64,000 bases of DNA from Promethearchaeota archaeon (GTDB taxonomy: Archaea; Asgardarchaeota; Lokiarchaeia; Sigyniarchaeales; SOKP01), in NCBI GenBank assembly GCA_019057795.1, contig JAHLWS010000052.1, forward strand, positions 1 through 64,000, given 5' to 3'. Numbering within the stretch: the first letter of the stretch is position 1; each line of letters begins with the position of its first letter. Of the stretch, positions 24,431 through 42,383 are shown piece by piece. Below the pieces are notes generated by a model. It was not told where the DNA came from, ran no database searches, and saw only the letters and a list, made by a program, of their open reading frames with translations. Both the position numbers and the translations under genes were made by a program.

Positions 24431-25000
24431 ATGGAAGCTATAACAATTAATAGATATGTTCAAGTTATTTGTCCTGTGTGTAAAGCACAGAACACGGTAC
24501 GGATTCCTAAGTCCGTAATTAACCAAGCGTCTCATCTAACTACCGTTTCTGTTCCTAAAGGCGAAATTTGTCAACATCACTTCCAATTATTTATAGACAA
24601 AAATTTTAAAATACGTGGATACCAAAAAGTTGATTTTCAATTAGACTCCGAGAATGACAAAAAGAAGAAAAATCTAAGACATAATTACAAAGAAAATTAT
24701 GTAAATAGTTTAAAACTATACAAATCTTCAGTACCAAAGGACAATTCTATCAAAAATGTGCCAAAAAAGCCAGATAATAAAAAAGAAACAAAAAAAATCG
24801 AAGAGAACTTTAATAGAAAAAATCATAGAGCATTACAAGATATTTACGAAGAATTTTGGGAATTTATCAGTGATAACAATGAAATTTTTCAAAAATTTAT
24901 TGTTAAAGACAAAAAAAGAAGGTTTCTTTTGAATATGAATGAATTAACACCAGTTTCGGATCATAATTTTTTACAAACAGTTGACAAAACTGTGCAGTAA
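24431..25000 (+). CDS. Zn-binding hypothetical protein of a Lokiarchaeia-type family
   Basis: CPVC...ICQHHFQLFIDKNFKIRGYQKVDF. Confidence 0.6.
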   Translation: MEAITINRYVQVICPVCKAQNTVRIPKSVINQASHLTTVSVPKGEICQHHFQLFIDKNFKIRGYQKVDFQLDSENDKKKKNLRHNYKENYVNSLKLYKSSVPKDNSIKNVPKKPDNKKETKKIEENFNRKNHRALQDIYEEFWEFISDNNEIFQKFIVKDKKRRFLLNMNELTPVSDHNFLQTVDKTVQ

Positions 25001-25092: not shown

Positions 25093-26244
25093 ATGAGCAT
25101 AGGCGGATTAATAAAAAAAGAATTTGCTAGAATTAAATCTGATAAAAGAACTTTAATTCTATTATTTGCAATACCAATGATATTAATTGTCATTTTTGGG
25201 CTTACTACGGGCGTTGGACCCACGAAATTCTTTACCACTGCGATTATAACTCTCGATGAAATGCCTACTTACGATAATTTCCCGTCAAACACTTCTCACT
25301 ACGACGATATTTTTATCTCGATAATGGAACAAAATAGCACAATGTGGGATCTTTATCGATACTATAATAGTAGCAACAGTGTAGAATATGACGAAGCATA
25401 TATTCGGTGTATTAATTTATTAAAAAATGAAGTAATAGATGTTTTTATTGTACTCCCTCAAAATTTCTCAGAATCTGTAGCAAATAAAACTAATCCTACA
25501 TTAATCTATTACATTGATGGATCTGATCTAAGCGCTGTTGGTGCAATTGAGGTAGCTCTTCAAGAACCCCTCGCTCTTTTTCGCGTTGAGATTAATATGT
25601 TGGAAAACTTTACAATAATGGTTCCACATCTTGAATTTGGGGTGCCTTCGTGGGAGTCTCAATTGCTCAACTACGCATTGGCTCTGATTTTACCAATAAT
25701 AATAATTGGGACTACGATGAATTTAACATCTTTAACAATTGTTTCTGAGGGTCCACTTCCGCGAATGCTTATTACACCTACGGCAAAAAGAGATATTATC
25801 CTTAGCAAACTAATTGCAAACACTGTAATAATGATAATGCAAGCTACAGAAATATTCGTAATGACATCATTTTTCGGTTTATATAGTTTAGGCTCGTTAT
25901 TTAATTTTTATCTAGTTTTAATAATGATTGGCTTTAGTGGGATATCTATAGGTTTATTTATCTCTGCAATTAGCCCAACAGAACAAGGAGCTAATCAAAT
26001 GTACTTGATGCTGTTTATTATTATCATAATTTTTTCAGGAACTCTTATGCCGCCTGAATCATTGGGGAGTGCACGATTTCTTACAGACATACTTCCTTTA
26101 AGCCACGCTTCAGTTCTTATAACAGATATAACTTTAAGAGGGTTATCGTTAAATTTAGAACATGTGCTTTCTATTCTTTTAATTTCATTTGTTTTTCTAG
26201 TAATTGCTTATATTGCATATAAGTTTAAAAAATTGGATGTGTAA
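25093..26244 (+). CDS. ABC-2 type permease (YbhR/S-like) with large extracellular domain
   Basis: KEFARIKSDKR N-terminal motif, TM1, exoplasmic loop with N-x-S/T sequons, 5 TMs, FSG...P...LPLSH. Confidence 0.9.
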   Translation: MSIGGLIKKEFARIKSDKRTLILLFAIPMILIVIFGLTTGVGPTKFFTTAIITLDEMPTYDNFPSNTSHYDDIFISIMEQNSTMWDLYRYYNSSNSVEYDEAYIRCINLLKNEVIDVFIVLPQNFSESVANKTNPTLIYYIDGSDLSAVGAIEVALQEPLALFRVEINMLENFTIMVPHLEFGVPSWESQLLNYALALILPIIIIGTTMNLTSLTIVSEGPLPRMLITPTAKRDIILSKLIANTVIMIMQATEIFVMTSFFGLYSLGSLFNFYLVLIMIGFSGISIGLFISAISPTEQGANQMYLMLFIIIIIFSGTLMPPESLGSARFLTDILPLSHASVLITDITLRGLSLNLEHVLSILLISFVFLVIAYIAYKFKKLDV

Positions 26245-26247
26245 AGA

Positions 26248-27480
26248 ATGAAACGGAGCAACCAAATCAACGATAAATCGTCTAAAGATGCTAAATTAAA
26301 AAAATTTAATTTTAAGAATAGTACATTTCGATTACTTAGACAAATTAAAAAAGAATTTCAACTTTTATGGACTGACAAATTCAATATTTTTATAGCGTTA
26401 ATAGTTCCCCCACTTGTAGTTGCCTTATTAGGTGTAACCACTAACATTGGAGGCTCTACTTCCAATCCTATAGATTGTGTTTTAGTTTCCTACGATTCAA
26501 ACACGTTTATTAATGAAAATAATTTTACGGAATCAAATCTAGACGATTACAGTGCGAAATATGTTGAGGCTGTAAACAGTTCGAATTTATTAAACCTTGT
26601 ACAATTTTTTAACGCTACTGAAGATATTTATGCGATGGAAACAGCTAGAAATTACTTAACTTCAAAGAAAATTAAGATTATTATTGCAATTCCGGTGGAT
26701 TTTTCTGAATTGTTAACCTGGGGGTATCCTGGTTTAATAGATTGCATAATTGATTCATCAAATATGAGAAAAATTCAAAAGAATTTAAATGCTGTTTATG
26801 ACTCTATTAAAATTTTTGTCAACCAAAACAATTTAACCCCTCAATTTAATGTTAGTGGTTTTGCAGAATTCTCAATTCCTGAAGACTATAGTTTCACATA
26901 TAATTATAATATGGTACTTGTTCTCTCTTTTATGGTTATAGGCGTTGGGATGGTCTCAACAATCTTAATAATAGTTCAAGAAAAACCTATTGCGAGATTA
27001 TTGCTTACTCCCGTTAAAAGAGCAGAGATTCTATCTGCAAAATATATCACTTATACTTGCATTTTAATTGTTCAAGATCTTTCACTTGTTATAAGTGCCT
27101 TAGCCTTTGGATTATACTTAGTAGGATCAGTCTTTGATTTATTCCTCGCATTATTTATTTTAGGGTTTAACGGTCTTGCTATAGGAATTTTTATTAGTAC
27201 ATTCAGCAAAACTAAAACCCAAGCAAATCAATTATTTTTTGGAGTATTTCTAATTTTAATTTTGTTAAGTGGAATTTTTATCCCTATTGATGCTATGCCG
27301 ATTTATTTACAAGTAATAGCATATGCTCTTCCTTTATCTCATGGAAGTCCATTGATATCAGGAATAGTTACTAAAGGAAAATCAGTATTTGGTTTTGACT
27401 TTTTTACTTTATTAGGAGTAAGCATTTTTCTGTTGATTACTTCATATATAATATTTCAAAGAAGAAAGTATGAGGTGTAA
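26248..27480 (+). CDS. ABC-2 type permease, second subunit
   Basis: KEFQLLWTDK, LLTPV, LSGIFIPIDAMP, LPLSH. Confidence 0.9.
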   Translation: MKRSNQINDKSSKDAKLKKFNFKNSTFRLLRQIKKEFQLLWTDKFNIFIALIVPPLVVALLGVTTNIGGSTSNPIDCVLVSYDSNTFINENNFTESNLDDYSAKYVEAVNSSNLLNLVQFFNATEDIYAMETARNYLTSKKIKIIIAIPVDFSELLTWGYPGLIDCIIDSSNMRKIQKNLNAVYDSIKIFVNQNNLTPQFNVSGFAEFSIPEDYSFTYNYNMVLVLSFMVIGVGMVSTILIIVQEKPIARLLLTPVKRAEILSAKYITYTCILIVQDLSLVISALAFGLYLVGSVFDLFLALFILGFNGLAIGIFISTFSKTKTQANQLFFGVFLILILLSGIFIPIDAMPIYLQVIAYALPLSHGSPLISGIVTKGKSVFGFDFFTLLGVSIFLLITSYIIFQRRKYEV

Positions 27481-28519
27481 AATGGAGAATTCAAGTCCGT
27501 CTGATAATACAATGGTACTAGTAGATAACCTAACTGTCACCTTTGGGGAAAACCAAGTTGTGAAAGACGTATCTTTTAATGTGAAGCAAGGGGAAATCAT
27601 TGGTATGTTTGGAATCTCAGGCGCTGGAAAAACTACAATTATTAGGGTTCTAACATGTCAAATTGAAAAGAAAAATTGGAGTGGAAATGTAGTAGTTACG
27701 GGTTTAAACCCTCGCAAAAAAAGAAATCATTCAAAAATTCTAAATAATATTGGATACGTACCTCAACTAGAACTATTGAATTTATATTTTGAATTAGACC
27801 CTTTAAAAAATGTTGATGTGTTTACATCTACTTATGGAATGAACAAAAAAAAAGCAAGGGAAACCGCTGAAAAGCTGTTTAAAATATTAGACATTCCTGA
27901 GGACACTTGGAAAAAAAGAGTATCGCGGATGAGCGGGGGCGAAAAAAAGCGTCTTTCAATGGCTATTGGTTTAATACATAATCCCCAAGTTCTCTTTCTT
28001 GACGAACCCACAACTGGCGTTGATGCATCGAAACGCTATGATATACTCAGTTATCTAAAGAAGTTAAACCAGCATTTAAACACAACTATGTTTATTATTA
28101 CGCACGATTTAGAAGCAGCACTAATATGTGATAAAACTGCGATATTAAGGCAGGGGAAATTACTCGAATTTGACACGCCTCAAAAACTAATATCTTCTTT
28201 GCCAAGTGGGGGTTTAGTTGCGAGAATTTCAATCGAAAATTTAGATCAAAAAGTAATAAAAACGGTTCAAAAATTTAATTCAGTCAAAAATGTATTACGC
28301 GTTGGAAATGAAACTATCGAAGTATTAATGGAAAATTTTGAGAATAACTTACCTAAATTAATGAAATACTTATTTGAGAATGAAGTTAAAATTTATTCAA
28401 TGAGTAGGGATATTGCCAACTTTAGAAGATTCTTTCAGATTAGAATCCAAGAGGAAGAAGAAAAAGAAAATGAAGAAAATCTTTCTGAAATAAATAGTGA
28501 AGGTGGAATTATATCTTAA
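27470..28519 (+). CDS. ABC ATPase (DrrA/CcmA-like)
   Basis: GISGAGKT, GYVPQ, MSGGEKKR, LDEPT, ITHD. Confidence 0.95.
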   Translation: MRCKMENSSPSDNTMVLVDNLTVTFGENQVVKDVSFNVKQGEIIGMFGISGAGKTTIIRVLTCQIEKKNWSGNVVVTGLNPRKKRNHSKILNNIGYVPQLELLNLYFELDPLKNVDVFTSTYGMNKKKARETAEKLFKILDIPEDTWKKRVSRMSGGEKKRLSMAIGLIHNPQVLFLDEPTTGVDASKRYDILSYLKKLNQHLNTTMFIITHDLEAALICDKTAILRQGKLLEFDTPQKLISSLPSGGLVARISIENLDQKVIKTVQKFNSVKNVLRVGNETIEVLMENFENNLPKLMKYLFENEVKIYSMSRDIANFRRFFQIRIQEEEEKENEENLSEINSEGGIIS

Positions 28520-28557
28520 AATTAAGTCGGAAAAATGAAAAAAGACTAAAAAATTTT

Positions 28558-31500
28558 ATGATAGTCTGTATTCTTATAGGAACTCCAATCATAAGTTTGG
28601 TTTTAATAAATGTTCGTTGGACTTATTTTATTGACGAAAAAGACGTTGAACAAGTTAAAAATATGGCAACTTCATTTACAAGCACGCACCATAACGATGT
28701 AGGACTTTTTGTAGAACCAGAAATTGATTCAAATTTTAGAGCTATTGATTCTATTAATTTCACATTTTCAAGTATTTATGCTCCTGAATTAATAAATCCT
28801 AATTATAATCTAAATATTGAGTCTTTTTCCCGTAATTTCTTTTTTGATTACATCTTTGAAAAACAAAATATCGATGGATCCTATTCAGATATAGCGGGAT
28901 TTGGAAATATGTTTTCAACCTATGAAGCAATCGAAACTTTAGAAATAGCCAATAAATCGTATCTTGAACGCAAGATAAATCTTAATGACACGAGTAATAT
29001 CGCAAATTACCTTTCAACTTCTTTAAATGAAGGGGGATGGGGTTTTAAGGCTAATCAGTTCTTAAACGATTCTGACATTATTTCTACATTCTGTGCGATT
29101 GAACTCGCCTATAGTTTATCAGAGAGTTCTTTACTTCTAAATCATAATATTGAAAAATTTATTAATTCCACATGGTTTGGAGGTAGTTATCGATCAACAA
29201 ATGTTTCTTTAGCTTCAAATCCAGAAACGACCTTCTATGGTATAAGAGCTTTTTTAGGTATGAATATGTCTTATAATTTTATTGAAAATTTATCTATTGC
29301 ACTTTATTTTAATTCATTATATAACCCTTTCGATGGGGGCTATATTAACACTGAAACGGGTATTAGTGATGTCAAATCAACTTATTACGCCATTTCTTCG
29401 CTAGATTTATTAGGGCTTTCTTCAACTTTAGTAAACGCTTCTAAAACATTAGAATATGTCTTAAATTGTTCAAATAATGATGGAGGGTTTGGTACACATC
29501 CAAATGTAACTAAATCTGATTTCACATCTGGTTGGGCAGCAATGAAATCAATTAAGATTTTAGAAAGCATATTACTTCTTACTCAAGAAGTAACTGATGT
29601 TCTAAAACAAATTAAAATTAATTACTATAAATGGCTACACTTTTTCCAAGCAAAAAACGCTCTATTTGGGCAAATAACAATTGAAACTAATTATTTTGGA
29701 ATTTTAACTTATTTTAGTATGGGTTATCTCGATTCAATACAGACCGCGCAATTTCAATACATAAAAATCAATATCTTAAATTTTACAAAAGCATGTTATA
29801 ATATTAACGATGGAGGATTTGGTTCGCAACCAGGTCAAGAAGCATCGCTTTTTGCAACGTATTGTGGATTAAAACTGTTGCAAATGCTTAATCCCGCAAA
29901 TCGACCTTGGGATCCTAATACTTTAAATCTAACACTGACAAAAAATTTCTTGTCTAGCTTGCAAAATTCTGATGGAGGTTTCAGAGTTGGAAACGATATC
30001 GATTATTTACTATCTCTTTTCGGATCTTATTCTATAGTTTTTACTAATTTAATCAATACGAATGTGTCCACTGTAGAAAGTACATATTGGGCATTAGTTT
30101 CTCTAGAATTAATTAATGGGTTAGATAAGATTCATTATAATAATCTTTCTCAATGGGTAAGGTCGTGCCAAAACGCTGATGGAGGATTTTCTATCGTTAT
30201 AGGATTTCATAGCGATGTTATATCTACATATTACGGTTTGCAAATCTTTTACGAGGGTTTTGTTGATGGTCCAATGTCTAAGATGACCGCAATTGGTTTT
30301 TTAAAGCTTTCGCAAACTTCCGATGGAAGTTTTTCCCTTTTACCCATGATGGGGGGATTTTTAGATTTACCTTCATCTTTTCTAGTGACCTATCTTGCTT
30401 CTAAAGCTCTTTACGACTATAACTTTCAACCTGATAGCATTCAAGAAGCTTTAATCTGGTTTTCGGGATGTATAAGCACCAACACGGGAGGAATAGGAGA
30501 TAACCCTGATTTTGGAGCTGATTTACGAAATTCTCCCTATGGAATTATAATTATAGACGAATTAAAATATGACCAGAGTTTTGATTCAAAACCTTGGAAT
30601 CAATTATTAATTTATATCTTACTTACTGAAGCTGGATTTATAGGTCTATATATATTTTTAAAAATTCGCAAAAGACTCTCGTTAATCAAAAGAATTATAG
30701 AAAAAGTAGGTTTGGGAGGGAAAATTACACCATCCTATCTTCAAAGGTTTTCAGCAATTCATTGTGAAAATTTCAGCGTATATGCGGGTGGTAAGTTAAT
30801 TGTTGATTCTGTTACAATGAAAATAGATCATGGGCAAATATTAGGAATCTTAGGGGAAAGTGGGGCAGGAAAGTCGACTTTTGTAAAAGGGTTGTTGGGA
30901 ATGAGAAAAATTACGGGATTTTGTAAAATTTATGGAATGGACATTAATAAAAAAAATTCTAAAAAGTTAAGACCAATATACGGCTATGTTCCCCAAGATC
31001 TAGGGAAAATCTATCATAATTTTACTGTCTTTGAAAACCTGTTATATTTTGGAAATCAATATGGGTTAACAGAACAAGAAATAATAAGTAGGTCTAGGAG
31101 ACTTTTGCGTAATCTTGAAATTGAAGATAAATTTAATGCACTCGTGAGAAACCTTTCGGGGGGCGAAAAAAGAAGGGTTAGCATTGCAATTGGGCTAATT
31201 CACGCCCCAATTTTTCTTATTTTAGATGAACCTACTTCAGGATTAGATCCAATAATACGCGAAAACTTATGGTTAGCCTTTACAAAAATCAACGAGCAAT
31301 TTGGAACTACTCTAATTGTTATAACTCATTACCCCGAAGAATCTCGCTTCTGCCATCGCGTTGCTATTTTCGGCAGAAATCGCGGCGTTATAGACTTTGG
31401 GAAACCAAAAGATCTTTTAGCTCAATTACCTGGAAAAGGACGTTCTATAGAAGTATGTTTCAAAGAACTAAAAGAAAATTTAATTGAAACGCTCGAATCT

Positions 31501-31704
31501 ATAGATGGTATAGAAAGCGTTCTTGAAAATAAAGCGGGAACTGATTATTCGTTATTTACCGAATTAAACTTAAAAGAACTAATTGAAAAAATCGAAAATG
31601 AAATTGGTAAAGATTCCATCCAAGAAATAAAGCAAATCGATTCTAAAATGGAACAATTCTTTAGATACAAATTAATTGAGGTGCCTGAAATTGAAGAACT
31701 CTAG
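28558..31704 (+). CDS. Prenyltransferase/squalene-cyclase-repeat (PFTB) ectodomain + TM + ABC ATPase fusion
   Basis: N-terminal hydrophobic anchor. About 10 repeats of (Q)NxDGG[FW] followed by (S)TY[YWC][AG]hxxLxLh. Many N-x-S/T sequons. TM near 30601-30660 followed by KIRKR. Intact GESGAGKS/LSGGEKRR/LDEPT/ITH. Confidence 0.85.
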   Translation: MIVCILIGTPIISLVLINVRWTYFIDEKDVEQVKNMATSFTSTHHNDVGLFVEPEIDSNFRAIDSINFTFSSIYAPELINPNYNLNIESFSRNFFFDYIFEKQNIDGSYSDIAGFGNMFSTYEAIETLEIANKSYLERKINLNDTSNIANYLSTSLNEGGWGFKANQFLNDSDIISTFCAIELAYSLSESSLLLNHNIEKFINSTWFGGSYRSTNVSLASNPETTFYGIRAFLGMNMSYNFIENLSIALYFNSLYNPFDGGYINTETGISDVKSTYYAISSLDLLGLSSTLVNASKTLEYVLNCSNNDGGFGTHPNVTKSDFTSGWAAMKSIKILESILLLTQEVTDVLKQIKINYYKWLHFFQAKNALFGQITIETNYFGILTYFSMGYLDSIQTAQFQYIKINILNFTKACYNINDGGFGSQPGQEASLFATYCGLKLLQMLNPANRPWDPNTLNLTLTKNFLSSLQNSDGGFRVGNDIDYLLSLFGSYSIVFTNLINTNVSTVESTYWALVSLELINGLDKIHYNNLSQWVRSCQNADGGFSIVIGFHSDVISTYYGLQIFYEGFVDGPMSKMTAIGFLKLSQTSDGSFSLLPMMGGFLDLPSSFLVTYLASKALYDYNFQPDSIQEALIWFSGCISTNTGGIGDNPDFGADLRNSPYGIIIIDELKYDQSFDSKPWNQLLIYILLTEAGFIGLYIFLKIRKRLSLIKRIIEKVGLGGKITPSYLQRFSAIHCENFSVYAGGKLIVDSVTMKIDHGQILGILGESGAGKSTFVKGLLGMRKITGFCKIYGMDINKKNSKKLRPIYGYVPQDLGKIYHNFTVFENLLYFGNQYGLTEQEIISRSRRLLRNLEIEDKFNALVRNLSGGEKRRVSIAIGLIHAPIFLILDEPTSGLDPIIRENLWLAFTKINEQFGTTLIVITHYPEESRFCHRVAIFGRNRGVIDFGKPKDLLAQLPGKGRSIEVCFKELKENLIETLESIDGIESVLENKAGTDYSLFTELNLKELIEKIENEIGKDSIQEIKQIDSKMEQFFRYKLIEVPEIEEL

Positions 31705-33397
31705 AGAAATAGAATTAGAACGATTAAGATTAAAAGTCTTGGACGCAATCCGTGTTTCTAAGCGCTTTTGGATGACTTATAGAGAAGATACTTTTGGAAT
31801 TGCTTCTATTATTGATTTAATTTATAAAAAGTCGTTTATTGAAGTATTATTCTTTACTAATAGCGATGTCCTTGAGAAAGGAGTTCCATTATTAAAGATT
31901 TATACCCCTATTGAAGATGAAATTGATTTCTTTGAGATTATATTTGAACCAGACTTCGATGAAGATGGTCTTATTAATCCATTGAAGATTATTCGGCGTA
32001 TGAGAAGATTGATTAGACAAGAATTCCAAAAACGCTTAGGAATTTTGAACAATGAGGTTGAACTAATTGATAATAAGTTTGAAAATTTACAAATAAAAAG
32101 AAACCCATACTATAGAGAGATTCGAATCTCGTATCCCAATTTCGCTACTAAATTTAAAATTAAATTTGAAAAATACCCCATTTTACCATCCCTTTCATTT
32201 TCAAAATCCTTGTCAAGGATTATTACTGAAAGAAAATTTAACGAAGAAGAAATTATAAGAAACTGGGATATTGAAAATCCTCCGCATGTTCTTGAAATAA
32301 TTGAAAAGATCTGTGAAATTGCTTCAAAACAGGTCAATCTCGAACCTTTAAAAGAAAATTCTCAATATTTGTTTCTTAATGATGTGTCAGTGGGAGAAGC
32401 AATTAATAATCTTTCTTTTAAAATTCATAAAGGAAAGTCTATTGGTATAATGTACGACATAAATAATGTTGAACATAGATTAGACTTATTGAACCTGTTT
32501 GAGATCATAGGAGGCTTGCAACTAGATTATACATGGTCAATAGAAATTTTCGGAAATCCCTTAAAATCGTTATCAAAAAAAGAAAAAGAGAAAATTTTTC
32601 TTTTACCTCCACCTTACGACTCAGTAATAACAAATATGAAAGTAAAGAAAGCAATTCAATACAAGCTAAATTTAAATGAGATATATAAAGAGAGAAAGAA
32701 CGTATTCAACACGATTTTAAAAAATGCTGGATTAGGTCAAAATATAGATGAAATTATTGAAGATTTTATTTGGGAAACAACTTATAAATTCAGTCGTAAA
32801 AAAAAGTTTATAAAAAATGTTTTGGAAGTAACTGGGATGCTAAATAAGAAAAATAAAAAGTTCTCAGAATTAACACCTTTAGAATACCTACTTTTCTCAA
32901 TAGCACGCGCTTTAATCCAGGTACCAACGATTATAATGTTTTCAATACCTTATAGAATTTTAGGAAAATTTGAATACGAAAAATTTAACAATTACATAGA
33001 TAAAATTAAGCAAGAATTTCATGTGATTATGCTTTTCCATGGATCTGAGGAAGTCGTATTAAATTGCGACCAAATTTTAACGATCACCAAAAGAGCATCA
33101 AAAATAGGATCTTTTAAGGATTATCTTAAAGAATTGCCTCAATATGGCGAGATTGTAACGATAGAACTAAACGATCCTGAAGAGTTCTTAATTAGAAAAC
33201 TAAAAGAAATGGAAGAAATTGAAGTAATAATTGAAGAAAGAAAAAATGAAAAATATAAGATTTTTCTTAAATCAAATACAAATAATGTAATCGTAAAGAT
33301 AACAGAATTATTTGGTCAACGTTTACAATGTTTCAAAAAATCTACTGCCTCCATTGGAGAATATTTAGAATTTAAACAAAATTATAATAAAATATGA
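31676..33397 (+). CDS. UBC/RWD-like domain + degenerate (inactive) ABC ATPase domain
   Basis: KFKIKFEKYPILPSLSF...IRNWDIENPPHVLEIIEKI is E2/RWD-like without a catalytic Cys. ABC scaffold (INNLSFKIHKGKSIG, SIARALIQVP, LFH, CDQIL) lacks Walker A, signature and Walker B residues. Confidence 0.6.
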   Translation: MRCLKLKNSREIELERLRLKVLDAIRVSKRFWMTYREDTFGIASIIDLIYKKSFIEVLFFTNSDVLEKGVPLLKIYTPIEDEIDFFEIIFEPDFDEDGLINPLKIIRRMRRLIRQEFQKRLGILNNEVELIDNKFENLQIKRNPYYREIRISYPNFATKFKIKFEKYPILPSLSFSKSLSRIITERKFNEEEIIRNWDIENPPHVLEIIEKICEIASKQVNLEPLKENSQYLFLNDVSVGEAINNLSFKIHKGKSIGIMYDINNVEHRLDLLNLFEIIGGLQLDYTWSIEIFGNPLKSLSKKEKEKIFLLPPPYDSVITNMKVKKAIQYKLNLNEIYKERKNVFNTILKNAGLGQNIDEIIEDFIWETTYKFSRKKKFIKNVLEVTGMLNKKNKKFSELTPLEYLLFSIARALIQVPTIIMFSIPYRILGKFEYEKFNNYIDKIKQEFHVIMLFHGSEEVVLNCDQILTITKRASKIGSFKDYLKELPQYGEIVTIELNDPEEFLIRKLKEMEEIEVIIEERKNEKYKIFLKSNTNNVIVKITELFGQRLQCFKKSTASIGEYLEFKQNYNKI

Positions 33398-33400
33398 GGA

Positions 33401-34213
33401 GTGAATATGCTTAAAAATCTTTATATTATAGACGAGAACGGAGTTTTATTATATTCCAAAAATTTTGTGAGAGAACAAAAGTACGACGATAATTTATTAA
33501 TAGGTTTTTTCACATCTATTACTAACTTTAGTAGGGAAGCCTTAGGTACGGCAGTTAAAACCGTTAATCTTGGGGAAAACAATAAACTTATCATCGTCAC
33601 AAAACAAGAAGAACGGTTACTCGGAGCCGCGATCGTGAGTTCAAATGATAACAACGAATTAGTCGCTAAAATTTTGAAAAACATTTTACAGGAATTTATC
33701 GATTCCTATTCGCCTGATTATGACACAGAAAAAATAATTCAAGAAGAAATGGAAAAAAACATTCAAAGCAATTTAAAAGGAAAAGTTATAAGCTCCCCCA
33801 TAATTAGAGTGGGGATATCGTGGTTAATTAACGGTTCGCTTATCTACCCTTTAATTTTACTCAGTATTTATACTACTCTTTTTATATTTGCGGCTTTTGA
33901 CCTAACTCAATATCTATATGGTGATGATCTGTTTACAAAATTTTTTCCGGCTTTGATTCTGTTATCAACTGGAAATATCATAATTTTATTTCTATTTCCT
34001 AATTTTCTTTTTGGGATTTTATCTCCAAATAGAAGAGTTGCCATTGCGAACTCTATCATCCATTTAGCTGTAACTATTGTGTTATTTGCCTACTCAGCAG
34101 AACCAGCTTTTGCCTACATCGTTATAGGGCATTTACCGTTAACATTGATTTTCTCTTTGTTTTTCTTGTTTGCCGGCATAAGATTCTCTTCAAAAAGGTT
34201 TTTAAAGAAATAA
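33401..34213 (+). CDS. Longin domain + about 4 TM helices
   Basis: LYIIDENGVLLYSK...LLIGFFTSITNF...KILKNILQEFIDSY longin pattern; hydrophobic C-terminal half. Confidence 0.75.
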   Translation: MNMLKNLYIIDENGVLLYSKNFVREQKYDDNLLIGFFTSITNFSREALGTAVKTVNLGENNKLIIVTKQEERLLGAAIVSSNDNNELVAKILKNILQEFIDSYSPDYDTEKIIQEEMEKNIQSNLKGKVISSPIIRVGISWLINGSLIYPLILLSIYTTLFIFAAFDLTQYLYGDDLFTKFFPALILLSTGNIIILFLFPNFLFGILSPNRRVAIANSIIHLAVTIVLFAYSAEPAFAYIVIGHLPLTLIFSLFFLFAGIRFSSKRFLKK

Positions 34214-34396: not shown

Positions 34397-34777
34397 ATGG
34401 TATGTGGTATAATGGTTTCAGTATTTATCGTAGAAGACGATTTGTCGTTGCAAAGGTTATATGAGATAATGCTAAAGACTTTCGGATTTGAAGTCGTTGA
34501 TAAAGCGAGCAACGGAAAAGAAGCCATTGAAAAATTCAAATCCCTATCGCCTAAACCGGATGTAATAATAATGGACCATCGAATGCCAGTTAAAAATGGA
34601 ATTGACACGACCATTGAATTGATGAAGTTCAATAACCACACTAAAATTGTTTTTACAAGCGCAGATAAGTCAATTAAAGGACGAGCGCTTGAAATAGGTG
34701 CTATTTCTTTTATCGAAAAACCATTTACCGTAATTCAACTACAAAACGAAATCAATAGAGTAGTTAACTTAGTTTAA
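34397..34777 (+). CDS. Single-domain response regulator (CheY-like)
   Basis: VEDD, MDHRMP (phospho-Asp), TS, IEKP. Confidence 0.9.
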   Translation: MVCGIMVSVFIVEDDLSLQRLYEIMLKTFGFEVVDKASNGKEAIEKFKSLSPKPDVIIMDHRMPVKNGIDTTIELMKFNNHTKIVFTSADKSIKGRALEIGAISFIEKPFTVIQLQNEINRVVNLV

Positions 34778-37979: not shown

Positions 37980-40900
37980 TTGACTAATATAGAACACAAA
38001 ACGGCCTATCCTTATATTACGGAATTTAAAAAAGAACCATTTAGATCTTTTGTTTTTGTTAAAAGAAGGGAAATTGGGAGTTTTTATCTTAGTGATTACG
38101 AAAAGGTCTTAGAATTATATCAGACTTACAACAAAAGTTTGTTAAATGAATCCAATTTACTTTTAGAGAATATATATTGGTTTCTTTTGTTAAGGAAATA
38201 TCTCAAGCAAAAAAAGAATGATTATAGAGAAGAGTTTTTAGAATTTATAAAAAGTTGCGAAGTTGAAATTATTGAAAAAGATCAATTAGGTTTTAAAGCC
38301 TCTCCAAATTCCACTAAAAAACCTGATGTTTGGTCATCGTATTTTGCATTAGCAAGTTTAAAATTGTTAGGAGTTTTGAAGGAATATCTTTCTTCAAAGG
38401 GTCAGAATGAAAATATCAGAAAAATTAAAAACTTTATTTACGACCATAAAAGAAACAACGGATTTTTGCACTGTCTAGATAAAGAATGTGCAGAAGATAA
38501 TAAAACGCCTGACGCTAAAACCCTATATTTCGTAATTGAGAGCTTAATCCTTCTTGGTGTAGATGTACGGTTATTCAAGGAGCAATTTCGTCAATATATT
38601 AACGATCGGAAAAAAGATATTTCCGTAATTTTTAAGTTATTATGTCTTAAATTCTTTGATTTAGATTCAGATGTAAAAGATAAAGAAATTCAATTTCTCT
38701 ATTCGTTTCAAAAAGATCACGGGGGATTTGGTTTTGATTCTGAAGATGGGGAAGTTTCTACTACTTTTTGGCTTGTAAATGTTCTTGATGTATATTCATG
38801 GTTAATTGATTATAATCCCGCGATGATTTATTCTTTTATCACAAAAAGTTTAGACACCATATTAAAAGAACGGGAAAGATGGAGTTTAAGGATCTTAACA
38901 GAAGTATCACAATTAGTAATTTTGTTATCTTTAATATGGCATCGCTTTATCGAAGAGATTGAAAGAGTTGTGTTTAAACGCTTAGAAGAGCATAACTTTA
39001 TAGATTTAAACCAAATTAAAACAACATTTGGTTTGAGTTATGGAATAGAAGAAATCATCTTGTACATTAATCTTAATTACACCATAAATTTAAGTATCAT
39101 AGACAATGCGGTAGAATTCAATCTCTATCTTCAAAACCTTAGTCAAGGTAAAAAAATTATTATTGAGGAAATCTATAACCAACTGAGCAAAAATAGCATT
39201 ATATCTCTTTCTGATATTTTTAAGAGGTATAAAGCTTCTTACCATTATGAACCTATAAAATTGAAAGAAGATATTTTTCCTTTAATTTACGACTTAATTA
39301 GCAATCATTTTTTTGAAGGAGAAATTAGAACTAAAAAAGCTTTTTTATTTAGAACTAAATTTTATTTATGTCTGGACTTTTTTTTTGAGAAAGTAATTGT
39401 TTCTGATAACGAGATAAATACGGAGAGGTTATACGAGGAAAAGGCGAAATTAAAAGATTTCAAAAACGATATATATAATATGACATTAAAATTAGAGAAC
39501 ACTATTCCACAGATTAGAGAAGAAATTGAATCTTATCTTTTATTAGACGAAGTTGAGTTTGCTAAAGAAAGGTTAAAGTTTATATTGCGAAACGCATTGA
39601 TGGAAGCTGATTTCTTAAACGAAAACATTGAAACTGGGTTTAATCAAGAATTAATTTATATTAATTTACAAGCTACATTAGGGTCTGAAATATCGCAATG
39701 GAACAAATCATATTCGCTTTTGCGGAATAGATTGAATGAATTAAATAAATATCTTCAAGGAAGAATCCAAGAAAAAGAACAATTAAAAAAGTATATTGTA
39801 ATCTTAGATGAATTAGATACTAAGGTATATAATATTCAAGATTATATAAATCGCGAGTTAGATTCTTTTAAGAGTTTTGTTGTAGAAATTCTTGAAGACG
39901 GGTATAGTAAGGAAAAATTTGATCTTATCATTCAAGAGTTTACCAAGATATCGCAATATGTAAATAAATATGATGGAATCGTCTACAAAATTTCTCACCA
40001 AATTACAGAAAAGGAAAAAAAAGTTGCCAAAAAACATAGAAAAATAATTAATAATTGGGTTAATTTTAAGGAGAATTTTGATTCGATTTTTGCAGATTAC
40101 ACGAATGGATTTCAATTTTTTAACGAATTAAATGAAAAAATCGGGAATGTCAAGGATAATATCCAAGCGGGTATATTAGAAATAAAAGAAAATGTGAAAA
40201 GTAAAGTTATTAATAATGAATTTCATGACGCGTTTAAAACCATCAAAAAGGAAGCCAACATTTTATTAAAACAAAAAACTGAAGAAATTAAAGATTTAAA
40301 ATCGATTGTAAAAAAGGAAATAAAATTCAAACAAAAGCTTTACCTTCTCTATAAATACTTGCAGGAGAAGTTAGATCGTCTTGAAGTGAACATTATTGAT
40401 TTAGTAGCTGAACACATCCAATTTATAAAGGAAAAAGTTATTGAAGAGAGAAATAGGGCAAAGATTGAAGATTTTGATAATTTTCTATCTAGTACAATCA
40501 CACACTTCAAAGATAAATTAGAGAATTATAAAATATATCTCGATCAAAATAGAATTAAAAAAATTGTCAATATAGTTATAGGTTTTGACAAGATACTTAT
40601 TGAATTTAACGAGTATAATAAGAAATTTTCTAAAAAGTTAATTGATCTAAAAGAAATTGTTGAAGAAAATTCAATTACAACAATACAATGGAATAAATTT
40701 AAAGATTTTTTAAACGAAGAAATAACCAAATTAAAAGAAGAATATGTAGATAACATAATTTCTAACGAAATAATATTTATGAGTAAGGAAAAAAACACAG
40801 ATAAAATAGATATTAAGAAACTAGCTAGCAAATTAGACCTCAAATGTAAAGCAGTAATTCCAAGGATAAAGAATTTGATAGAAATTTCCAAATTACAAGG

Positions 40901-42383
40901 AGATTTATTTGAAGATAAAAAGGAACTAATAGTTCATACAAAGGAGTATTACAAGAGTCGAGAGCTAAAAAATTACGTAGAAAACAGGATTTTAAAACAA
41001 ACGCATGAATCAATTGGAAAATTTTTAGCACTTTACGATTCTTGTATAAAAAATAAAACTTTAGGAGTAAATTTGTTAGAAATTCAGAATAGAATTGATG
41101 ATTTGAGCAAATTAGAGGAAACTGTTAATAAGCGATACGATATGAAGATTAAAGAGTTAAATGTTGACGAAGCAAGAATTGAAACCATGGAGCTCAAAAA
41201 AAGCGTTAACTCAATTATCAGTAATAATCGGTTAGCAATAGAAAATATAAAACAGAATCTAATACTTTTTAATGAGTTACTAAATTTTATAAGCAGCAAA
41301 TATAACGCTCTTCAAATAGAAGTTAATAATCTTTTTGATAAACTCTCGGAAGACATTGAAAGGATCGAAGTTTACGGGAAAATGAGAGAAATTCTTGAAA
41401 GTAGAAAGAAAAAAGTCGAAATTAAATTTAAGCTAGTTGACGAAAAGATCGAAGAAAAGTTGAATTTAGTTATTAATAATACTTACGAATCAAGAAAATT
41501 TGAGACTGAAGCAAGAGAATTCTACATTAAGAAAAAGAATGAAACGCTAAAAAGGTACGAAGAAAAGGTATATCTCATTAACGAACAGATAAATACTTTA
41601 AGATTTGAGACTTGTCGCGACAAATTATTGATTAATATAAATAAGAATAAAGTTCATTTGAGTCAATTATTAGGTACCCTTCAAGCGAGAGTTGAAGATT
41701 ATATTGAAACAGAACAATTTAAAAGGGCAGCTCTAAAAGTAAATAAAAGACAAAAAAACATTGAACAAGAATTAAAAGATGTTAATAAAAGAAACAAAGA
41801 ACTAATTAAAGAATTTAACAGGCAATCAAATAATTTTGAAACTAAAAATAAACACATAATTGATGAATTTGAGCGTTTTATAAAAGAGTTTAGCGACATT
41901 TTAAGGGAGAAAGTTAAATCCTTAGAAGAGTTGGTGATAAAATCGTACGTTAAAATGGCAATAAAAGCTGTTGCTAACGAATTTCTTACGTTAAGCTTTT
42001 TACAGAATGAATTAAAAATAAAAAAACAGCAAATCCAAAAACATCTTATTTCATTGATTAGCGCTGGAAAATTGAATGGAAAATTCGATCCCCAAATTGG
42101 GTTGTACTACGAAAATCCAGATGTCTTAGCAAAGTTGGATGACAAAGAGTTAGAAGTTATAAAGAAAATGAATTTTCGAGTATACATGTTTATTAGGCGT
42201 TTAAAGAATTTTACAAACCAGTACGGGTCAATCATTGCTTTCTTTGCCTCAATCTTAACGATATCATATTATATCTTCCGACTCAGTGGAGAAAATCCAA
42301 TTACAATTTTAATTCCTGTTCTTTTGACGTTAATAGTATTCTTTTTCTTCTTTTTCAAAAAAAGGAAGGAAGATAAAATTTGA
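37980..42383 (+). CDS. Large protein: PFTB prenyltransferase-like repeats + PCI/winged helices + coiled coils + C-terminal TM hairpin
   Basis: KPDVWSSYFALASLKLLG, FQKDHGGFGF...STTFW repeats. WH-like IDIKKLASKLDL...IKNLIEISKLQG and LSFLQNELKI...LISAGKLNGKFD. Long K/E heptads. Two terminal TMs followed by KKRK. Confidence 0.65.
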   Translation: MTNIEHKTAYPYITEFKKEPFRSFVFVKRREIGSFYLSDYEKVLELYQTYNKSLLNESNLLLENIYWFLLLRKYLKQKKNDYREEFLEFIKSCEVEIIEKDQLGFKASPNSTKKPDVWSSYFALASLKLLGVLKEYLSSKGQNENIRKIKNFIYDHKRNNGFLHCLDKECAEDNKTPDAKTLYFVIESLILLGVDVRLFKEQFRQYINDRKKDISVIFKLLCLKFFDLDSDVKDKEIQFLYSFQKDHGGFGFDSEDGEVSTTFWLVNVLDVYSWLIDYNPAMIYSFITKSLDTILKERERWSLRILTEVSQLVILLSLIWHRFIEEIERVVFKRLEEHNFIDLNQIKTTFGLSYGIEEIILYINLNYTINLSIIDNAVEFNLYLQNLSQGKKIIIEEIYNQLSKNSIISLSDIFKRYKASYHYEPIKLKEDIFPLIYDLISNHFFEGEIRTKKAFLFRTKFYLCLDFFFEKVIVSDNEINTERLYEEKAKLKDFKNDIYNMTLKLENTIPQIREEIESYLLLDEVEFAKERLKFILRNALMEADFLNENIETGFNQELIYINLQATLGSEISQWNKSYSLLRNRLNELNKYLQGRIQEKEQLKKYIVILDELDTKVYNIQDYINRELDSFKSFVVEILEDGYSKEKFDLIIQEFTKISQYVNKYDGIVYKISHQITEKEKKVAKKHRKIINNWVNFKENFDSIFADYTNGFQFFNELNEKIGNVKDNIQAGILEIKENVKSKVINNEFHDAFKTIKKEANILLKQKTEEIKDLKSIVKKEIKFKQKLYLLYKYLQEKLDRLEVNIIDLVAEHIQFIKEKVIEERNRAKIEDFDNFLSSTITHFKDKLENYKIYLDQNRIKKIVNIVIGFDKILIEFNEYNKKFSKKLIDLKEIVEENSITTIQWNKFKDFLNEEITKLKEEYVDNIISNEIIFMSKEKNTDKIDIKKLASKLDLKCKAVIPRIKNLIEISKLQGDLFEDKKELIVHTKEYYKSRELKNYVENRILKQTHESIGKFLALYDSCIKNKTLGVNLLEIQNRIDDLSKLEETVNKRYDMKIKELNVDEARIETMELKKSVNSIISNNRLAIENIKQNLILFNELLNFISSKYNALQIEVNNLFDKLSEDIERIEVYGKMREILESRKKKVEIKFKLVDEKIEEKLNLVINNTYESRKFETEAREFYIKKKNETLKRYEEKVYLINEQINTLRFETCRDKLLININKNKVHLSQLLGTLQARVEDYIETEQFKRAALKVNKRQKNIEQELKDVNKRNKELIKEFNRQSNNFETKNKHIIDEFERFIKEFSDILREKVKSLEELVIKSYVKMAIKAVANEFLTLSFLQNELKIKKQQIQKHLISLISAGKLNGKFDPQIGLYYENPDVLAKLDDKELEVIKKMNFRVYMFIRRLKNFTNQYGSIIAFFASILTISYYIFRLSGENPITILIPVLLTLIVFFFFFFKKRKEDKI

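Follow-up and report, generated by a model that had tools for sequence, protein, structure and literature searches.

A conserved six-gene operon of Lokiarchaeia joins an ABC-2 transporter to a prenyltransferase-like toroid, a UEV/RWD-like pseudo-ATPase, and a membrane-anchored longin domain

Introduction

Exporters such as DrrAB, NodIJ, and RbbA (YhiH) combine two permeases of the ABC2_membrane type, each with six transmembrane (TM) helices, with a DrrA-like ATPase that has a C-terminal domain. All of these parts are encoded in one operon. Here we describe a six-gene operon from an archaeon of the Promethearchaeota (Lokiarchaeia; assembly GCA_019057795.1) that has the same parts at its core. 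The operon lies at positions 25093-34213 of a 64,000-nucleotide stretch of contig JAHLWS010000052.1; we will call the whole stretch the window, and we will call the genes g1 to g6. Unlike DrrAB, NodIJ, or RbbA, the operon encodes three ATPase-type proteins, one of which is fused to a toroid domain and one of which is a dead ATPase with UEV/RWD-like domains. It also encodes a subunit with a longin domain and four TM helices (longin-4TM).

Two other groups of ATP-binding cassette (ABC) systems offer partial parallels. In NosDFY and in ABCA1/4/7, a type V pump serves a large extracytoplasmic domain, and these proteins are among the best fold matches for g5. But in the operon, the toroid is on a separate chain with its own ATPase domain, and it shows no relation to NosD or to the ectodomains of the ABCA proteins. 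MacB, FtsEX, and LolCDE are similar to g4 in concept only, as they couple a large outside domain that lies between two TM helices to an ATPase domain. Unlike g4, they have four TM helices and another fold, and we detected no relation in sequence or fold.

The eukaryotic signature proteins of the Asgard archaea are taken to include longin and UEV/RWD domains. RWD-like, UEV-like, and longin domains were already known from these organisms (PMC6601020, PMC10936438, PMC13037920). In the literature, which we searched without the supplements of the large Asgard surveys, we found no description of the operon or of a fusion of RWD, UEV, or longin domains with an ABC transporter. This agrees with a first-pass annotation of the window, made from the DNA sequence alone, which had flagged the combination as a candidate novel system. 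PADLOC reported generic similarity to ABC ATPases and nothing more. The core of the system is an ordinary ABC-2 exporter; what sets it apart is the addition of the toroid, the UEV/RWD pseudo-ATPase, and the longin-4TM protein.

Results

The six genes are conserved as a unit

The list of open reading frames (ORFs) for 25093-34213 contains six co-oriented genes on the + strand, which overlap or are separated by short gaps. g1 and g2 encode permeases, g3 encodes a soluble ATPase, g4 encodes the toroid and an ATPase domain, g5 encodes the pseudo-ATPase, and g6 encodes the longin-4TM protein.

This gene order is kept in close relatives (loci L001-L015), and also in other families at 22-47% identity (L019, L020, and L039; in L020, the end of the contig cuts g1). 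Across all of these loci, the order is identical and the proteins are 22-61% identical. In family f5 (L017 and L022), g5 is divergent from g3-g4-g1-g2 yet adjacent to them, so the genes have been rearranged but are still linked. In more than 70 genomes, g5 and a full-length ortholog of g6 are on one contig; in every case, g6 has the same orientation as g5 and begins less than 100 nucleotides (nt) after it.

The individual families are also narrowly distributed. Members of the g5 family come from Asgard archaea only, and when we searched 400 Asgard genomes, almost all of the strong matches were within the window's class. The ectodomain of g4 (E below 1e-40) is present in 85 of the 161 genomes of the class, as a single copy, and it is beside g5 where the contigs allow this to be seen. 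The genomes that we examined with a strong match to g5 but no g4 have a contig end at that point (G218 and G255) or are of low completeness (G269, 81%). Among 1.84 billion representative proteins, about a dozen clusters had colinear full-length matches to g4 (about 1040-1150 amino acids, or aa), and all of the named ones are from Promethearchaeota or Lokiarchaeota. Across families f1 and f3-f7, g4, g5, and g6 are single-copy and are found only alongside this pump.

Because the gene order is conserved, because the linkage survives rearrangement, and because g4, g5, and g6 co-occur as single copies, the comparative evidence indicates that the six genes are one unit, or machine, and not a chance neighborhood. 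The first-pass annotation had noted the near-contiguous, co-oriented genes, had proposed that their products form one system, and had suggested gene order in other Asgard genomes as a check. The ORF list, the conserved order (including in L019, L020, and L039, at 22-47% identity), and the co-occurrence of g4, g5, and g6 bear this out. A scan for sigma-70 promoters and for terminators gave no excess over shuffled sequences, and the sigma-70 model is not applicable to archaea.

g1, g2, and g3 encode a complete ABC-2 transporter

g1 (25093..26244, + strand) matches the ABC2_membrane_3 family of Pfam (PF12698; 1.2e-23, 84.2 bits versus a cut-off of 31.6) and PF01061 (3.8e-15). g2 (26248..27480, + strand) matches the same two families (4.6e-21 and 75.7 bits with the same cut-off of 31.6 for PF12698; 1.1e-19 for PF01061). 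By hydropathy, g1 has six TM helices, with an ectodomain of ~150 aa between TM1 and TM2, and its paralog g2 has the same topology. Given these matches, g1 and g2 are classified as paralogous 6-TM permeases of the ABC-2 (type V) kind. The first-pass annotation had described the ectodomains of both permeases as bearing sequons; a clear enrichment is confined to g1 (6 sequons observed versus 1.7 +/- 1.2 expected).

g3 (27470..28519, + strand) is a soluble ABC ATPase with a C-terminal regulatory domain. It matches ABC_tran in Pfam (2e-25), and its closest NCBIfam model is DrrA (1.2e-57). Its Walker A motif (GISGAGKTT), signature (LSGGEKKR), Walker B motif (LFLDEP), and H-loop are all kept. The ATPase domains of the operon are closest to DrrA, RbbA, NodI, and GldA. 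By domain content, g1-g3 are by themselves a complete canonical ABC-2 set.

At L002:4771-6919, and in the same range of L003, the g3 region is called as short ORFs (99, 184, and 144 aa), and there is extra sequence after g2. In these two loci, which are from related MAGs, g3 may be broken or interrupted; the operon is otherwise intact.

g4 joins a prenyltransferase-like toroid to an intact ATPase domain

g4 (28558..31704, + strand) encodes a TM helix, a prenyltransferase-beta-like ectodomain (residues 25-682; nt 28630-30603), another TM helix, and an intact ABC nucleotide-binding domain (NBD) with a C-terminal domain (nt about 30745-31701). It matches Prenyltrans in Pfam (PF00432; 2.7e-35, 122.7 bits versus a cut-off of 26.5) as well as ABC_tran (1.8e-25). 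The motifs of the ATPase domain are intact (GESGAGKST, LSGGEKRR, and LILDEP), and the H-loop is present. The hydropathy profile shows TM helices at residues 1-19 and 683-701, and the stretch KIRKRLSLIKR lies between the second helix and the ATPase domain. From the two flanking helices, the cytoplasmic location of the ATPase domain, and the positive-inside rule, we expect the ~660 aa of the ectodomain to lie outside the cell.

We compared a profile of the ectodomain, built from 17 orthologs, to the PDB. The profile matched the beta subunits of RabGGT (1.5e-26), FT (5e-19), and GGTase-I (8e-13). These matches to prenyltransferase beta structures are at the level of the repeats. The translation contains about ten [DN]-G-G/S-[FWY] repeats, which would be enough for two toroids. 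Sequons are weakly enriched in the ectodomain (15 versus 10.6 +/- 3.0 expected).

Although g4 shares its alpha/alpha toroid repeats with the beta subunits of RabGGTase, FTase, and GGTase-I, it differs from them in having about ten repeats within 660 aa, in its predicted location, and in lacking features that define the enzymes. No His is invariant in the alignment of 17 ectodomains. The two invariant Cys residues precede GG within the repeat motif, and neither belongs to a D-x-C motif. We did not find an Asp/Cys/His zinc site in the toroid when residues were mapped by motif, rather than by colinear alignment. Also, no PPTA-type alpha subunit in the genome scored above the cut-off: the best match to PF01239 had 25 bits (versus 29.5), and weak matches of equal strength are present in control archaea. 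Prenyltransferase beta subunits are expected to be in the cytoplasm, and the prediction from the TM helices puts the toroid of g4 on the other side of the membrane. Because there is no invariant His, because the Cys residues belong to the repeat motif, and because there is no alpha subunit above the cut-off, we predict that the toroid is probably a binding module rather than an enzyme.

A second protein with toroid repeats is encoded 4 kb downstream of the operon (window 37980-42383). This ORF of 1467 aa matches Prenyltrans (5.3e-11, residues 51-209) and PCI (4.5e-6). Its adjacency to the operon is not kept in L001.

g5 combines UEV/RWD-like domains with a degenerate ATPase

The ORF of g5 opens at 31676, but the protein likely starts at TTG 31691, as GAGGTG lies 9 nt upstream of this codon. 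This start gives a protein of 568 aa, the same length as the recorded protein (P0004), and an overlap of 14 nt with the end of g4. Pfam has no match to g5. We relied on an AlphaFold model built with 38 homologs (predicted local distance difference test, or pLDDT, of 82; predicted template modeling score, or pTM, of 0.76) and on comparisons of profiles.

The C-terminal part of g5 (residues 226-571 of the model; 32357..33397, + strand) has the fold of an ABC NBD followed by a C-terminal regulatory domain, as in g3 and g4. VIA-align matched it to CbiO1 (3gfo; Z 19.2) and TM_1403 (4yer; Z 18.8), and Foldseek gave 3e-12; ABCA1/4/7 and NosF also ranked high. In an alignment of g5 with g3 and g4, the Walker A motif is replaced by YDINNVEHRLD, the signature by LTPLE, and the Walker B motif by MFSIP. 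At the same sites, g3 and g4 keep GxxGxGK[ST], LSGGE, and DEP. Walker A is gone in all of the orthologs of g5 that we examined, including those with just 22-28% identity. Only the orthologs from lineage f5 retain LSxGEKRR and the Walker B glutamate. On the strength of the model and the lost motifs, we classify this half of g5 as a pseudo-ATPase.

Residues 118-226 of g5 (domain 2; 32027..32353, + strand) are related to the repeats of P0364, a protein of 591 aa from the same genome. BLASTP aligned residues 161-212 of g5 with residues 264-314 of P0364 (E 6e-7), and hhalign gave 97.9% for domain 2 against repeat 2 and 85% against repeat 3. When we combined domain 2 with repeats 1-3 of P0364 in a joint profile, 23 of the 24 PDB matches had the UBC fold, with the first UEV domain of BRE/BRCC45 (E 0.003) at the top and E2 enzymes (0.008) close behind. 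Each single E-value for the relation of g5 to UBC proteins is modest. In the full-length model, a helix (102-134), four strands, and then helices follow in an order that fits the UBC fold; fold searches with this model listed ABC ATPases only. The alignment of domain 2 has an invariant [YF]P..P and an invariant W, and it contains neither a conserved Cys nor an HPN motif, which is why we consider domain 2 to be UEV/RWD-like and not an active E2. As judged from the profiles, domain 2 clearly belongs to this non-catalytic branch of the UBC superfamily.

Residues 1-100 (domain 1; 31691..31975, + strand) form an alpha/beta domain. At the equivalent site of this domain, distant orthologs have F-P-x-[DE]-[YF]-P, and hhalign matched it to repeat 1 of P0364 (77.9%, E 1.8e-5). 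Domain 1 is probably a second, degenerate, UEV/RWD-like copy. We also considered whether domain 1 is an EF-hand. Its profile matched calmodulin (E about 0.003), but the match is due to a D-x-D-x-D-G loop (residues 93-98; window 31952-31969) that is nearly invariant and is absent from the distant orthologs. Position 12 of the loop is a non-canonical Lys, and we rejected this assignment.

Thus, g5 is similar to BRE/BRCC45 and FANCL in having a UBC domain with [YF]P..P and W and without the Cys, and likely in the tandem arrangement as well. Unlike in those proteins, the domains of g5 are fused to a degenerate ABC ATPase, and g5 has no link to a deubiquitinase or a RING domain.

P0364 itself (L023:3482-5257, minus strand; contig C30 of genome G000) contains four tandem UEV/RWD-like repeats and a Cys/His-rich, RING-like finger at its C terminus. 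It matches UQ_con in Pfam above the cut-off (31.7 bits, 1.3e-7), and its repeat 4 matches RWD (25.1 bits, 2e-5). At least 12 related genomes (L024-L035) encode a version of 550-620 aa, and the architecture recalls FANCL or BRE. Another variation is seen in a distant metagenomic ortholog of g5 (L040:3514-5760), which has ~210 additional aa at its N terminus with Lys/Pro/Val-rich repeats of the KKAPEKK type (Extensin_1 in Pfam).

g6 is a longin domain on a four-helix membrane anchor

The ORF of g6 opens at 33401, and translation likely starts at ATG 33407, where the orthologs begin. The protein has a longin domain (33407..33790, + strand) and a membrane domain with four long hydrophobic helices (33797..34213, + strand). 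In the structural model (pLDDT 78), the longin domain consists of strands 4-11 and 16-21, helix 30-50, strands 54-58, 61-68, and 73-80, and helices 85-103 and 114-125. This beta-beta-alpha-beta-beta-beta-alpha-alpha order in residues 1-128 is that of longin. The membrane helices are at 133-165, 176-207, 211-232, and 235-269.

When we compared the model to 48,161 chains with VIA-align, the top match was the longin domain of VAMP7 (2vx8; Z 13.7, root-mean-square deviation 2.4 over 112 residues). The small and medium chains of AP-3 (Z 13.1), Sec22 (12.6), and TRAPP Bet5 (12.1) followed, and roadblock/MglB proteins were lower (Z 8.5-10.3). Foldseek gave 8e-5 to AP2 sigma. Sequence comparisons were less sensitive: the Pfam matches, to Sybindin and Intu_longin_1, were both below the threshold, and the profile of g6 had no significant match to sequences from the PDB (best E 0.63). 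The model confirms the longin domain of g6 and its 4-TM anchor. When we searched the ESM Atlas by fold, this combination of longin and TM helices turned up in Asgard clusters only.

g6 thus shares its fold with VAMP7, Sec22, Ykt6, AP sigma, TRAPP Bet5, and SRX (Z 11-13.7), and as in the longin SNAREs, the membrane anchor is C-terminal to the longin domain. Unlike the longin SNAREs, g6 is anchored by four TM helices instead of one and has no SNARE motif. There is no room for such a motif, as just a few residues separate the end of the longin domain (at ~128) from the start of the first TM helix (at 133).

With g6, all of the domain assignments in the first-pass annotation are upheld: the permeases, the intact ATPase, the toroid-TM-ATPase protein, the UBC/RWD domain with a dead ATPase (by profiles), and the longin-4TM protein. 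It had singled out the PFTB, UBC, and longin folds for checking; for the toroid and the longin domain, the deciding matches are those of g4 to Prenyltrans (2.7e-35) and to RabGGT beta (1.5e-26), and those of g6 to the longin proteins that head the VIA-align list (Z 13.7).

We considered two ways in which g4 and g6 might interact, and we rejected both. The two TM helices of g4 and the four of g6 could have formed a split ABC-2 permease, but hhalign of the TM region of g6 against the alignment of g1 and g2 gave 0.2%. A contact between the toroid and the longin domain, like that between the beta subunit of GGTase-III and Ykt6 (entry 6j74, which is in both lists of matches), conflicts with the topology, as the toroid is predicted to be outside and the longin domain inside. 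For g5 and g6, complex prediction gave an ipSAE of 0.00, below the mark, in both runs, which were made without control pairs and speak neither for nor against a contact.

With the longin part of the g6 profile, we found many paralogs across the phylum, in 336 of the 400 Asgard genomes. In families f5-f7 of the class, full-length longin-4TM paralogs are also encoded elsewhere in the genome. In f5 (L041:2849-7030 and L043:3528-6800), a gene for a Gtr1/RagA-like GTPase is followed by an unknown gene of ~390-400 aa and then by one or two longin-4TM genes. In f6 (L045:3714-5360), a longin-4TM gene is head-to-head with a gene for a Ras-like GTPase (Ras 1.7e-48). Two loci of longin-4TM paralogs from f7 have no adjacent GTPase gene. 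That these paralogs adjoin GTPase genes in two lineages is a lead on coupling to GTPases.

Variable neighbors of the operon

Just upstream of the operon, g0 (24431..25000, + strand) encodes a protein of 189 aa with a zinc-ribbon-like motif (CPxC...C-x-HH) and a weak match to Zn_ribbon_Brz (E 0.0013). In L001 and L002, g0 precedes the operon as well; in L009 and L015, it comes after g6. It is possibly a seventh gene of the system, with a loose linkage that we saw only in the family of the window.

Downstream of the operon, the window encodes a stand-alone receiver (34397..34777, + strand; Response_reg 2.9e-22), as the first-pass annotation had noted. This gene is a variable neighbor, outside the conserved core. 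It follows g6 in L002, L003, L005, L006, and L012 only; it is absent from L001, from L011, and from all of the distant loci, so it is not conserved beyond the closest relatives.

At one locus, from a distant lineage (L019:11470-12657, genome G129), g6 is directly followed by a gene for a protein with a VWA domain and a RING-H2 finger (VWA_2 2.8e-17; zf-RING_2 1.5e-6). It is possible that this neighbor is of the ubiquitin-ligase type.

Discussion

What the operon might do

We propose that the operon encodes one accessory ABC-2 (type V) exporter that delivers a hydrophobic cargo to the toroid, with g5 and g6 as non-catalytic adaptors. We put the chances that this is correct at about even. In this proposal, g1 and g2, together with the two live ATPase domains, would pump a hydrophobic substrate, plausibly of the isoprenoid type, to the outer face of the membrane. 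The non-catalytic toroid of g4 would receive or hold the substrate there, and ATP-driven motion of the attached ATPase domain would move the toroid. g5 and g6 would hydrolyze nothing and would serve as a scaffold or regulator at the cytoplasmic face. g5 would join the complex via its ATPase-like and regulatory domains, and g6 would join via the membrane. Their UEV/RWD and longin surfaces would be offered to protein partners, which for the longin domain would most likely be a small GTPase, and binding of these partners would set when or where the pump works. A more specific version, which we consider quite unlikely, is a lipid exporter that is steered by eukaryote-type adaptors, in which the longin domain reads a small GTPase and the tandem UEV/RWD domains read a ubiquitin-like or other protein signal.

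Several observations weigh against this proposal. The presence of the operon is patchy: it is found in 75 of 134 genomes of the family, in 25 of 41 genomes of the genus, and in 21 of 54 genomes of a sister genus. Several complete genomes of the same genus lack it, and genomes without it that are rated 98-100% complete are G235, G236, G261, G267, and G270. That its presence is patchy even within genera shows that the operon is accessory and dispensable. g6 is not beside the operon in L016, L017, L022, or L038, and the g5 of L038 has just 335 aa and lacks the N-terminal domains. Conversely, at L021:9311-10947 (genome G279), a protein of 267 aa that corresponds to the C-terminal part of g5 (the helical subdomain and the regulatory domain) is encoded directly before an ortholog of g6, with none of the permease, ATPase, or toroid genes in the vicinity. 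There are three ATPase-type domains for two permeases, which makes the stoichiometry ambiguous. Without Walker A and (in the window's family) the signature, g5 could not form a normal ATP sandwich. The isoprenoid ligand is suggested by analogy, as the homology of the toroid to prenyltransferases is at the level of the repeats. And since GTPase genes are numerous in Asgard genomes, two adjacencies to longin-4TM paralogs are weak evidence.

The main rival is that the system transmits mechanical force, in the style of FtsEX or MacB. Together with g5 (and g6), g4 would bind ATP at its ATPase domain, which would pair with the dead domain of g5; this would move the TM hairpin and reshape the outside toroid, which would act on a component of the envelope, and nothing would be transported. 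In favor of this, the large outside domain of g4 lies between two TM helices and is connected directly to an ATPase domain, and g4 itself includes no permease. The retention of LSxGEKRR and the Walker B glutamate by the g5 of f5 makes a composite ATP site with the Walker A of g4 conceivable, and the fold matches of g5 include NosDFY, in which a type V transporter drives a partner outside. Against it, the two permeases and g3, a full exporter by themselves, are always in the operon, and in the window's family the signature of g5 is degenerate (LTPLE). On balance, mechanotransmission seems unlikely. A further rival is uptake or sensing, in which the tethered toroid would be a substrate-binding domain (compare the alpha6/alpha6 domains of cobalamin carriers) that captures an outside ligand and either passes it to the permeases or reports that it is there. 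Importers typically have fused binding domains, the toroid appears to be non-catalytic, and in the closest relatives a receiver gene follows the operon. However, the permeases and ATPase domains group with the exporters DrrAB, NodIJ, and RbbA, the toroid has an ATPase domain, rather than a permease, as its fusion partner, and the receiver is not conserved, so we consider uptake or sensing to be very unlikely.

There are two further explanations. In one, which the first-pass annotation had put forward, the operon is an exporter of isoprenoids or lipidated cargo that is tied to small-GTPase trafficking by the longin domain and to the ubiquitin/ESCRT machinery by the UEV domain. The longin fold is confirmed, g5 has a Cys-less domain of the UBC superfamily, longin-4TM paralogs adjoin GTPase genes, and in one lineage a VWA and RING-H2 gene follows g6. 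But no gene for ubiquitin, E1, E2, or ESCRT is conserved beside the operon, which also lacks an adjacent GTPase gene; the RING neighbor is at a single locus; and in many systems, RWD and UEV folds are plain protein-protein adaptors. We consider this explanation to be quite unlikely. In the other, g1-g3 might be an ordinary efflux pump for drugs or metabolites, with g4-g6 as unrelated neighbors. g1-g3 are indeed a canonical ABC-2 set, and the operon is accessory. This explanation is contradicted by co-occurrence, as g4-g6 are single-copy, are found only with this pump (in f1 and f3-f7), and are linked even after rearrangement; it is extremely unlikely.

Implications

To our knowledge, almost no longin or UEV/RWD domain from the Asgard archaea has a known partner or role in archaea. 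The patchy distribution of the operon argues for a specialized, accessory role rather than a central stage on the way to eukaryotic membrane traffic, and this tempers any evolutionary reading. Still, the operon structure and the strict co-occurrence lock both a longin domain and UEV/RWD domains to a defined ABC exporter, and the remaining parts of the system are conventional and can be assayed. This makes it a concrete system for asking which partner a longin domain binds in a prokaryote, what role a UBC domain without the Cys plays on a dead ATPase, and what the toroid holds. If the operon does carry out lipid export under the control of adaptors, then these would be the first Asgard signature domains to be wired directly into a defined transporter, and they would offer a biochemical handle.

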